The translations under genes were made by a program, and so were the position numbers. From UHGV virus genome UHGV-1847494: 21,641 bases of DNA; one strand, written 5' to 3'. Shown here piece by piece: positions 17,090-18,402 of the stretch. The stretch is from a virus. Position 1 is the stretch's first letter; the number at the start of each line of letters is the position of its first letter. The notes under the pieces are model-generated. The model was not told the DNA's origin, did not search any database, and saw only the letters and a program-made list of their open reading frames with translations.

Positions 17090-17833
17090 ATGACACAGAC
17101 AGAATCAGCGATTCTGGCGCACGCCCGGCGATGTGCGCCAGCGGAGTCGTGCGGCTTCGTGGTGAGAACGTCGGAAGGGGAAAGATATTTTCCCTGCGTG
17201 AATATCTCCGGTGAGCCGGAGGAGTATTTCCGGATGTCGCCGGAGGACTGGCTGCGGGCAGAGATGCAGGGTGAGATTGTGGCGCTGGTCCACAGCCACC
17301 CCGGTGGTCTGCCCTGGCTGAGTGAGGCCGACCGGCGGCTGCAGGTGCAGAGTGATTTGCCGTGGTGGCTGGTCTGCCGGGGGACGATTCATAAGTTCCG
17401 CTGTGTGCCGCATCTTACCGGGCGGCGCTTTGAGCACGGTGTGACGGACTGTTACACCCTGTTCCGGGATGCTTATCATCTGGCGGGGATTGAGATGCCG
17501 GACTTTCATCGTGAGGATGACTGGTGGCGTAACGGCCAGAATCTCTATCTGGATAATCTGGAGGCGACGGGGCTGTATCAGGTGCCGTTGTCAGCGGCAC
17601 AGCCGGGCGATGTGCTGCTGTGCTGTTTTGGTTCATCGGTGCCGAATCACGCCGCAATTTACTGCGGCGACGGCGAGCTGCTGCACCATATTCCTGAACA
17701 ACTGAGCAAACGAGAGAGGTACACCGACAAATGGCAGCGACGCACACACTCCCTCTGGCGTCACCGGGCATGGCGCGCATCTGCCTTTACGGGAATTTAC
17801 AACGATTTGGTCGCCGCATCGACCTTCGTGTGA
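17090..17833 (+). CDS. K: Tail tip assembly protein K (lambda gpK-like; JAMM/MPN plus NlpC/P60-like)
   Basis: Contains the JAMM motif HSHPGGLPWLSEAD at about 17290-17335. An SD-proximal ATG at 17234 would give a 199-aa product, matching the lambda K size I recall, but the frame is open and protein-like from ATG 17090 (247 aa). The upstream start is preferred on domain grounds. Confidence 0.75.
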   Translation: MTQTESAILAHARRCAPAESCGFVVRTSEGERYFPCVNISGEPEEYFRMSPEDWLRAEMQGEIVALVHSHPGGLPWLSEADRRLQVQSDLPWWLVCRGTIHKFRCVPHLTGRRFEHGVTDCYTLFRDAYHLAGIEMPDFHREDDWWRNGQNLYLDNLEATGLYQVPLSAAQPGDVLLCCFGSSVPNHAAIYCGDGELLHHIPEQLSKRERYTDKWQRRTHSLWRHRAWRASAFTGIYNDLVAASTFV

Positions 17834-18402
17834 AAACGGGGGCTGAAGCCATCCGGGCACTGGCCACACAGCTCCCGGCGTTTCGTCAGAAACTGAGCGA
17901 CGGCTGGTATCAGGTACGGATTGCCGGGCGGGACGTCAGCACGTCCGGGTTAACGGCGCAGTTACATGAGACTCTGCCTGATGGCGCTGTGATTCATATT
18001 GTTCCCAGAGTCGCCGGGGCCAAGTCAGGTGGCGTATTCCAGATTGTCCTGGGGGCTGCCGCCATTGCCGGATCATTCTTTACCGCCGGAGCCACCCTTG
18101 CAGCATGGGGGGCAGCCATTGGGGCCGGTGGTATGACCGGCATCCTGTTTTCTCTCGGTGCCAGTATGGTGCTCGGTGGTGTGGCGCAGATGCTGGCACC
18201 GAAAGCCAGAACTCCCCGTACACAGACAACGGATAACGGCAAACAGAACACCTATTTCTCCTCACTGGATAACATGGTTGCCCAGGGCAATGTTCTGCCT
18301 GTTCTGTACGGGGAAATGCGCGTGGGGTCACGCGTGGTTTCTCAGGAGATCAGCACGGCAGACGAGGGGGACGGTGGTCAGGTTGTGGTGATTGGTCGTT
18401 GA
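17731..18402 (+). CDS. I: Tail tip assembly protein I (lambda gpI-like)
   Basis: 223 aa with a Gly/Ala-rich hydrophobic segment. Overlaps K by 103 nt in a different frame, as I recall for lambda K/I. Confidence 0.85.
   Translation: MAATHTLPLASPGMARICLYGNLQRFGRRIDLRVKTGAEAIRALATQLPAFRQKLSDGWYQVRIAGRDVSTSGLTAQLHETLPDGAVIHIVPRVAGAKSGGVFQIVLGAAAIAGSFFTAGATLAAWGAAIGAGGMTGILFSLGASMVLGGVAQMLAPKARTPRTQTTDNGKQNTYFSSLDNMVAQGNVLPVLYGEMRVGSRVVSQEISTADEGDGGQVVVIGR

Follow-up and report, generated by a model that had tools for sequence, protein, structure and literature searches.

The tail tip assembly gene K of the phage genome studied here can be read from two start codons, and the question is which of them opens the gene. 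In the window, by which we mean the whole analysed stretch of 21,641 nucleotides (UHGV virus genome UHGV-1847494), an ATG at 17090-17092 and an ATG at 17234-17236 share one reading frame and both end at the TGA at 17831-17833, yielding products of 247 and 199 aa, respectively. An earlier note, made from the letters of this DNA, had regarded the frame as open and protein-coding from ATG 17090, which is confirmed by the analyses below, and had given 199 aa as the size of K in phage lambda, which is how K is annotated in J02459 and NC_001416. It left two readings standing: the genuine product is the longer protein, or there are two forms of K.

Layout of the K locus

Full-length gene K (17090..17833, plus strand), encoding a tail tip assembly protein of 247 aa with a JAB/JAMM and an NlpC/P60 domain, follows gene L (16387..17085, plus strand), which encodes the 232-aa minor tail or tail tip protein L (ORF list; Pfam Phage_tail_L, E 1.4e-98). 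The TAA stop codon of L occupies 17083-17085, which leaves a gap of 4 nt to ATG 17090, and the long form of K begins with the N-terminus MTQTESAILAHARRCAPAESCGFVV. The 3' end of K is overlapped, in a different frame, by gene I (17731..18402, plus strand), with a ubiquitin-like domain and a structural C-terminal domain (ORF list; Pfam Lambda_tail_I at residues 14-97). K is thus located between L and the ubiquitin-like I, upstream of J, with its start abutting the L stop, which is the position of TAPK in the TAPK/TAPI system, where a JAB plus NlpC/P60 protein stands beside a ubiquitin-like TAPI and the host-specificity protein J (PMC1779556); the locus is an instance of that system and shows no difference of substance from it. 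Start and length of K in the window are those of the automated PGAP call WP_000194780.1 in E. coli genomes.

Coding evidence for the N-terminal extension

An open stretch of 48 codons is not remarkable by itself; the evidence for the extension (17090..17233, plus strand) as part of the gene comes from Pfam and PHROG matches, pN/pS and predicted secondary structure. In the K frame, codons 2-48 have a pN/pS of 0.246 across 88 unique close relatives, compared to 1.34 and 1.96 in the other frames, and their variable sites number 14, 10 and 30 at codon positions 1, 2 and 3. The earlier note had proposed a comparison of selection on 17090-17233 across homologues, and had named relaxed, noncoding-like variation upstream of 17234, together with starts mapped only to 17234, as what would speak against it; the variation observed is the opposite, namely purifying selection in the K frame only.

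The reading frame is also retained as a whole. An intact, gapless 744-nt K ORF is present in 226 of 233 related loci, and when the 247-aa protein was searched by tblastn in 50,697 phage records, 1,760 of them matched, 1,722 with a coverage of at least 80% of the query. Alignments in a single piece begin at query residue 1-8 at identities down to 27%, and the relatives found in this way include HK97 and T1-like phages as well as phages of Klebsiella, Pseudomonas, Ralstonia, Vibrio and Mannheimia. A protein search among 1.84 billion representative proteins returned 2,840 relatives of K, of which the full-length ones are 230-260 aa long and enter the alignment at their own residues 3-15.

Profile searches separate the two forms clearly. 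The 247-aa form matches Prok-JAB (PF14464) over profile positions 3-112 of 114 (53.9 bits, E 2e-14), whereas the 199-aa form matches positions 63-112 only and, with 23.5 bits, stays under the Pfam gathering cut-off of 25 bits, which only the long form passes. On their own, the 48 residues match Prok-JAB positions 3-41 (E 2e-5) and PHROG tail families (E 6e-31 to 2.5e-22).

Conservation in an alignment of 87 diverse relatives (32-81% identity) extends well into the part upstream of Met49, the residue encoded by the internal ATG: Gly22 and Asn38 are invariant, and Pro17, Glu19, Cys21 and Phe47 are conserved in at least 90%. Glu19 (GAG codon, 17144..17146, plus strand), identified by conservation and by alignment with solved JAMM proteins as the upstream catalytic Glu of the JAMM motif, is E in 86 of these 87. 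The zinc-site motif H68-S69-H70...S78...D81 (HSHPGGLPWLSEAD, residues 68-81; 17291..17332, plus strand) has H68, H70 and D81 invariant among the relatives and S69 and S78 conserved in at least 90%. All six residues (E19, H68, S69, H70, S78 and D81), kept in 83-87 of the 87 relatives, are contained in the 247-aa form, in which the motif E-x(n)-H-S/T-H-x7-S-x2-D is complete, whereas the 199-aa form lacks E19. Judged from these comparisons, the 48-codon extension is coding, with a signal far beyond chance.

It could be argued that only the 199-aa protein is made, and that the upstream frame is a non-coding spacer or the decayed remnant of an ancestral domain. The short protein is the one annotated in J02459, NC_001416, UniProt TIPK_LAMBD, HK630 and lambda imm21, and ATG 17234 has the better Shine-Dalgarno (SD) sequence. 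Nevertheless, the Pfam match, the conservation of catalytic residues, the frame-specific purifying selection and the intact ORFs in nearly all related loci contradict this explanation, as do homologues that begin at the L stop, and the annotation itself goes back to a one-base omission that only the reference and two non-independent records show (see below). We consider its probability negligible.

Domain architecture and predicted structure

K combines a JAB/JAMM metalloprotease at its N-terminus (residues ~1-106) with an NlpC/P60 cysteine peptidase at its C-terminus (~111-224). AlphaFold, run on an 87-sequence alignment, models the 247-aa protein with a pLDDT of 97.4 and a pTM of 0.91. In this model, residues 1-48 form one helix (3-15) and two strands (21-27 and 30-36) belonging to the MPN fold (pLDDT 97-98), so that the long form has, as a predicted structure, the MPN fold. 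In Foldseek searches the N-terminal half of K superimposes on Pyrococcus JAMM1 (5ld9/5lda) with an rmsd of 2.4-2.6 Å over ~110 columns and also resembles CSN5, Rpn11 and AMSH. In a profile search of the PDB, the match begins at profile position 2, and Glu19 is aligned with the Glu of 2kks, 2kcq and 5lda. The Pyrococcus furiosus JAMM1 (5ld9; 5lda with SAMP2), DSY2949 (2kks) and 2kcq share with K both the fold and the E...HSH...S..D zinc site, and JAMM1 cleaves a ubiquitin-like protein, as gpK reportedly does with gpI. However, these three are stand-alone single-domain proteins, whereas in K the JAMM domain is joined to an NlpC/P60 peptidase, and K acts in virion assembly.

The NlpC/P60 (C40) peptidase domain (residues 111-224; 17420..17761, plus strand) is recognised by Pfam, conservation and Foldseek alike. 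It covers profile positions 1-105 of 105 of NLPC_P60 (PF00877) with 49.2 bits, above the gathering cut-off of 23 bits, and thereby belongs to this family. Its triad, encoded on the plus strand at 17450-17452 (Cys121), 17648-17650 (His187) and 17684-17686 (His199), is conserved in the relatives (C121 and H187 in 86/87, H199 in 87/87), and the structures resembling this half in Foldseek are MepS/Spr, LytE and C. difficile autolysins.

The earlier note had pointed out that the JAMM motif lies about 18 residues past the downstream start, which agrees with H68 being residue 20 of the 199-aa form, and that this leaves no room for the N-terminal strands and the upstream Glu. This argument holds: of the JAMM/MPN fold, the short form has neither the N-terminal helix nor the first two strands nor the catalytic Glu, and for this reason the 247-aa reading is the right one. 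The structure predictions of both forms, which the note had also suggested, were less useful for the decision. The 199-aa form is modelled with a pLDDT of 97.1, and the truncated model keeps the remaining part of the fold; with a pLDDT of ~97 for both, the comparison does not discriminate as to which form is made.

Probable start of translation

Nearly all of the diverse relatives that were checked begin K either overlapping the stop of L (TGATG) or no more than 12 nt past it. Translation of K in the window would accordingly begin at ATG 17090, 4 nt past the stop of L. No recognisable SD sequence was found for ATG 17090, and because this codon has no SD of its own, translational coupling is most likely, in which ribosomes terminating on L would reach the K start. 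Such coupling would suit K, a protein presumably needed in small, non-structural amounts. Codons 1-20 of K (17090-17149) have a third-position diversity of 0.008, compared to 0.077 in codons 21-48; the value is 0.056 in the last 30 codons of L and 0.056-0.095 in the flanking coding sequence. The low synonymous diversity at the beginning of K fits an initiation region and may reflect a constraint at the RNA level on coupled L-K initiation.

A TTG at 17048, which would give 261 aa, was rejected as a start. It exists only through the L-K spacer of the window, which is one A shorter than in lambda, where this frame is already closed at 21 nt before the ATG.

The putative internal start at Met49: one form or two

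The other reading of the earlier note assumes two forms of K, 247 aa from ATG 17090 and 199 aa by internal initiation at the SD-preceded ATG 17234 (17234..17236, plus strand), which encodes Met49 and is the start of the legacy 199-aa annotation; we regard it as very unlikely. In the 199-aa protein the NlpC/P60 domain would be intact and the JAMM domain crippled, in analogy to lambda C/Nu3 and S107/S105.

The site that gave rise to this idea is real. A GGAGGAG (17218..17224, plus strand) lies within the coding sequence, in the codons Pro43-Glu44-Glu45, 9 nt before ATG 17234; the spacing of 11 nt given in the earlier note is obtained when counting from the GGAGG core. The SD is good and its spacing workable, which makes some internal initiation physically plausible. 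However, the pattern GGAGG-N5-12-ATG occurs in the window at chance frequency (6 instances, with 6.1 expected from shuffles), and the combination of an SD-like site and an ATG was for that reason not accepted as pointing to a start. Of the 88 unique close relatives, 84 have Met49 and 87 have GGAGG, but these sequences are too alike to give the counts weight, and the 4 without Met49 carry ATA, ATT, ATC or CTG in place of ATG. In the 87 diverse relatives the same column holds Ile in 54, Met in 15, Leu in 10 and Val in 5, and so has the composition of a hydrophobic core position rather than of a conserved initiator. Codons 41-49 show no additional constraint, their third-position diversity of 0.078 comparing to a gene mean of 0.080. 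A functional internal start, i.e. a conserved start codon and ribosome binding site under extra constraint, was not found at Met49. Likewise, nothing resembling a promoter was detected upstream of 17234, since the promoter and terminator scan returned only weak matches to the consensus, which lie within coding sequence, and no Rfam family matched in the window.

In favour of a separate short product one may cite that the NlpC/P60 domain is whole in the 199-aa form and that AlphaFold is equally confident on it, although the latter is non-discriminating; yet this form is devoid of the catalytic Glu and of three secondary-structure elements of the MPN core. A use of Met49 as a second start restricted to the lambda-like clade, which would there yield full-length K together with a 199-aa form without JAMM activity, has in our judgement only a small likelihood. 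If the Met49 start were used, the short form might modulate or compete with full-length K in tail-tip assembly.

Taken together, there is nothing in support of a second short form of K, and the SD-like site and ATG at 17218-17236 would be no other than the codons Pro-Glu-Glu...Met49 inside the JAMM domain. Of the two readings in the earlier note, the real 247-aa protein is upheld and the two forms are not. K is, with high probability, one 744-nt gene that starts at ATG 17090 and encodes 247 aa, the 199-aa length being an annotation artefact.

Origin of the 199-aa lambda K

An alignment of the window with lambda records shows that J02459/NC_001416 lack a G after position 14266, 10 nt before ATG 14276; J02459 position 14266 corresponds to ~17223 of the window. 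The junction reads GGAGGC-TATTTCC in J02459/NC_001416, GGAGGCGTATTTCC in the re-sequenced lambda imm21 and HK630, and GGAGGAGTATTTCC in the window. From the upstream ATG (14133) to ATG 14276 there are 143 nt in the reference, out of frame, compared to 144 nt elsewhere. Because 14133 is out of frame in the reference, the 1982 annotation could only choose 14276.

The G is present in Lambda_AGU (LC730321; +G at 14266), and the version with the G is shared without any difference by at least 33 phage records, among them DE3 and several isolates and hybrids of lambda (KT232076, PV340536, imm21, imm434). Among the records examined it is absent only from J02459, its RefSeq copy, OR974322 and OR474059. 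The last two were considered as real polymorphisms and rejected: the feature coordinates of OR974322, from a chicken-swab sample, are identical to those of the reference, and OR474059, flagged UNVERIFIED, resembles an engineered strain. In the MutaMouse lambda-gt10 transgene, '14266 C>CG' is listed as a constitutional variant (PMC6760142). A 33-mer without the G has no exact match in IMG/VR or in metagenome contigs, whereas the 33-mer with the G has at least 120 exact matches in each of the two.

Lambda DNA sequenced by accident gives the same result. More than 20 lambda contaminant contigs carry the G and are otherwise identical or nearly identical to J02459, and 15 differ from J02459 by the G alone, over up to 1,941 nt. 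Some 20 assemblies of unrelated bacteria hold such lambda DNA at low coverage, some of them as whole contigs of ~48.4-48.5 kb; they include Neobacillus, Pseudomonas, Shewanella, Chromatium, Bradyrhizobium, Paenibacillus and Leeuwenhoekiella. The lambda DNA in these assemblies is evidently reagent or spike-in contamination.

Every independently sequenced lambda that we examined has the G and encodes 247 aa. On the evidence of these records it is apparently the reference that is in error and not lambda that lacks the G, and the textbook 199-aa K is an annotation artefact of this one-base omission in the 1982 reference. As a side observation, J02459 further carries one G too many at 138 when compared with Lambda_AGU and the MutaMouse lambda-gt10 transgene.

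The legacy has survived re-sequencing. A 2022 genome announcement by lambda specialists reports nine differences from the 1982 sequence, which are not listed (PMC9119081), and the lambda imm21 record of that announcement annotates K with 199 aa despite the extra G, as do expert-curated records of lambda hybrids with the extra G. Our literature searches found no publication that explicitly gives lambda K 247 aa or names 14266 as an error of the reference. The long K is already known: it is what PGAP calls as standard in RefSeq E. coli genomes, and HK97 gp19 and the lambda record PV340536 annotate the long form as well; the practical addition of the present analysis is that the 199-aa legacy is traced to base 14266. 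For the window this means that the start of the K gene is fixed, at 247 aa, as the automated E. coli annotation already states.

Comparison with known systems

The closest known relative of the window K is lambda gpK (P03729/TIPK_LAMBD; AAA96551), with 97-98% identity in both DNA and protein, the same position between L and I in the H-M-L-K-I-J tail-tip block, and the same JAMM and NlpC/P60 residues. It differs in that the reference entry, with the G absent after 14266, has 199 aa, compared to 247 aa in the window. WP_000194780.1 ('C40 family peptidase', PGAP, E. coli) is encoded by 744 nt, has 247 aa and starts 5-6 nt past the L stop, and K of the lambda record PV340536 (XSB40720.1) carries the same 247-aa call; both differ from the window K by a few residues, and the name 'C40 peptidase' of the former ignores the JAMM domain. 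The exact 247-aa sequence of lambda occurs on at least 1,000 contigs, and 4,371 of 5,426 complete genomes carry a homologue; the exact K protein of the window has no match in a collection of 15 billion proteins.

Among more distant relatives, HK97 gp19 (AAF31108, 236 aa) likewise has two domains, starts 2 nt past the stop of its L homologue and aligns from query residue 3; it differs by an identity of only 36%, by the lack of the C-terminal tail and by a Leu in place of Met49. The K of a Mannheimia phage is annotated with 243 aa and a start 4 nt past L.

The tape measure gene of the window (12823-16056) encodes 1077 aa, in contrast to the 853 aa of lambda H. The lengths of ORFs further upstream also look unlike those of lambda, although L, K and I are 97-98% lambda-like. 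The prophage thus appears to be mosaic, the junction lying upstream of L.

Predicted and reported function of K and consequences of the annotation

The combination of a JAB plus NlpC/P60 protein K beside a ubiquitin-like I was recognised by Iyer, Burroughs and Aravind in 2006, who predicted that K cleaves I past its ubiquitin-like domain (PMC1779556), and a 2025 conference report describes gpK as a deubiquitinase-like enzyme acting on gpI. In the virion only residues 135-223 of gpI are resolved, and gpK is absent from it and undetected in virion mass spectrometry (PMC10721106). According to this predicted and reported role, K would remove the ubiquitin-like N-terminal domain of the neighbouring gpI during tail-tip assembly. 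Processing of gpI would need the whole JAMM domain including Glu19, and a role that requires an intact JAMM domain would in turn require the 247-aa protein. The full-length sequence matters in particular given the reported deubiquitinase-like action of gpK on gpI.

NC_001416/J02459 and P03729, the two most-used lambda references, carry K minus 48 residues, among them the catalytic Glu. A 2020 HHpred survey that worked on the 199-aa entry accordingly reported 'a peptidase domain, residues 52-182 out of 199', and the JAMM domain was missed (PMC7291167). Clones made from the annotated 199-aa ORF would express a crippled K, and reads mapped to the lambda reference give a false '+G' variant (PMC6760142). 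Lambda-type records give K lengths of 199, 211, 224, 233 and 247 aa.

In PV340541 (phage mEp332), K is annotated with 233 aa from a different start; a 1-nt deletion within a stretch of five G in the K extension, at about position 518 of the locus, breaks the frame there. This deletion is probably a homopolymer sequencing error. If it is real, however, mEp332 would be a viable phage with a disrupted JAMM domain.

Start of gene I and antisense reading frames

The start of gene I is annotated inconsistently as well: lambda records use the ATG at 17731 (223 aa), and PGAP the GTG at 17830 (190 aa), which overlaps the K stop. Pfam Lambda_tail_I begins at residue 14 of gene I, which is the second Met (ATG 17770). 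Over 17770-17829, where both genes share the DNA, third-position variation in 135 relatives is 0.085 in the I frame and 0.004 in the K frame. The variation resides on third positions of the I frame, and I is therefore coding upstream of the PGAP start. The 190-aa PGAP call probably truncates the ubiquitin-like domain of I.

Opposite L and K, the minus strand holds long antisense ORFs at 16363-17091 (242 aa) and 17105-17509 (134 aa). Long ORFs are common opposite GC-rich coding sequence.
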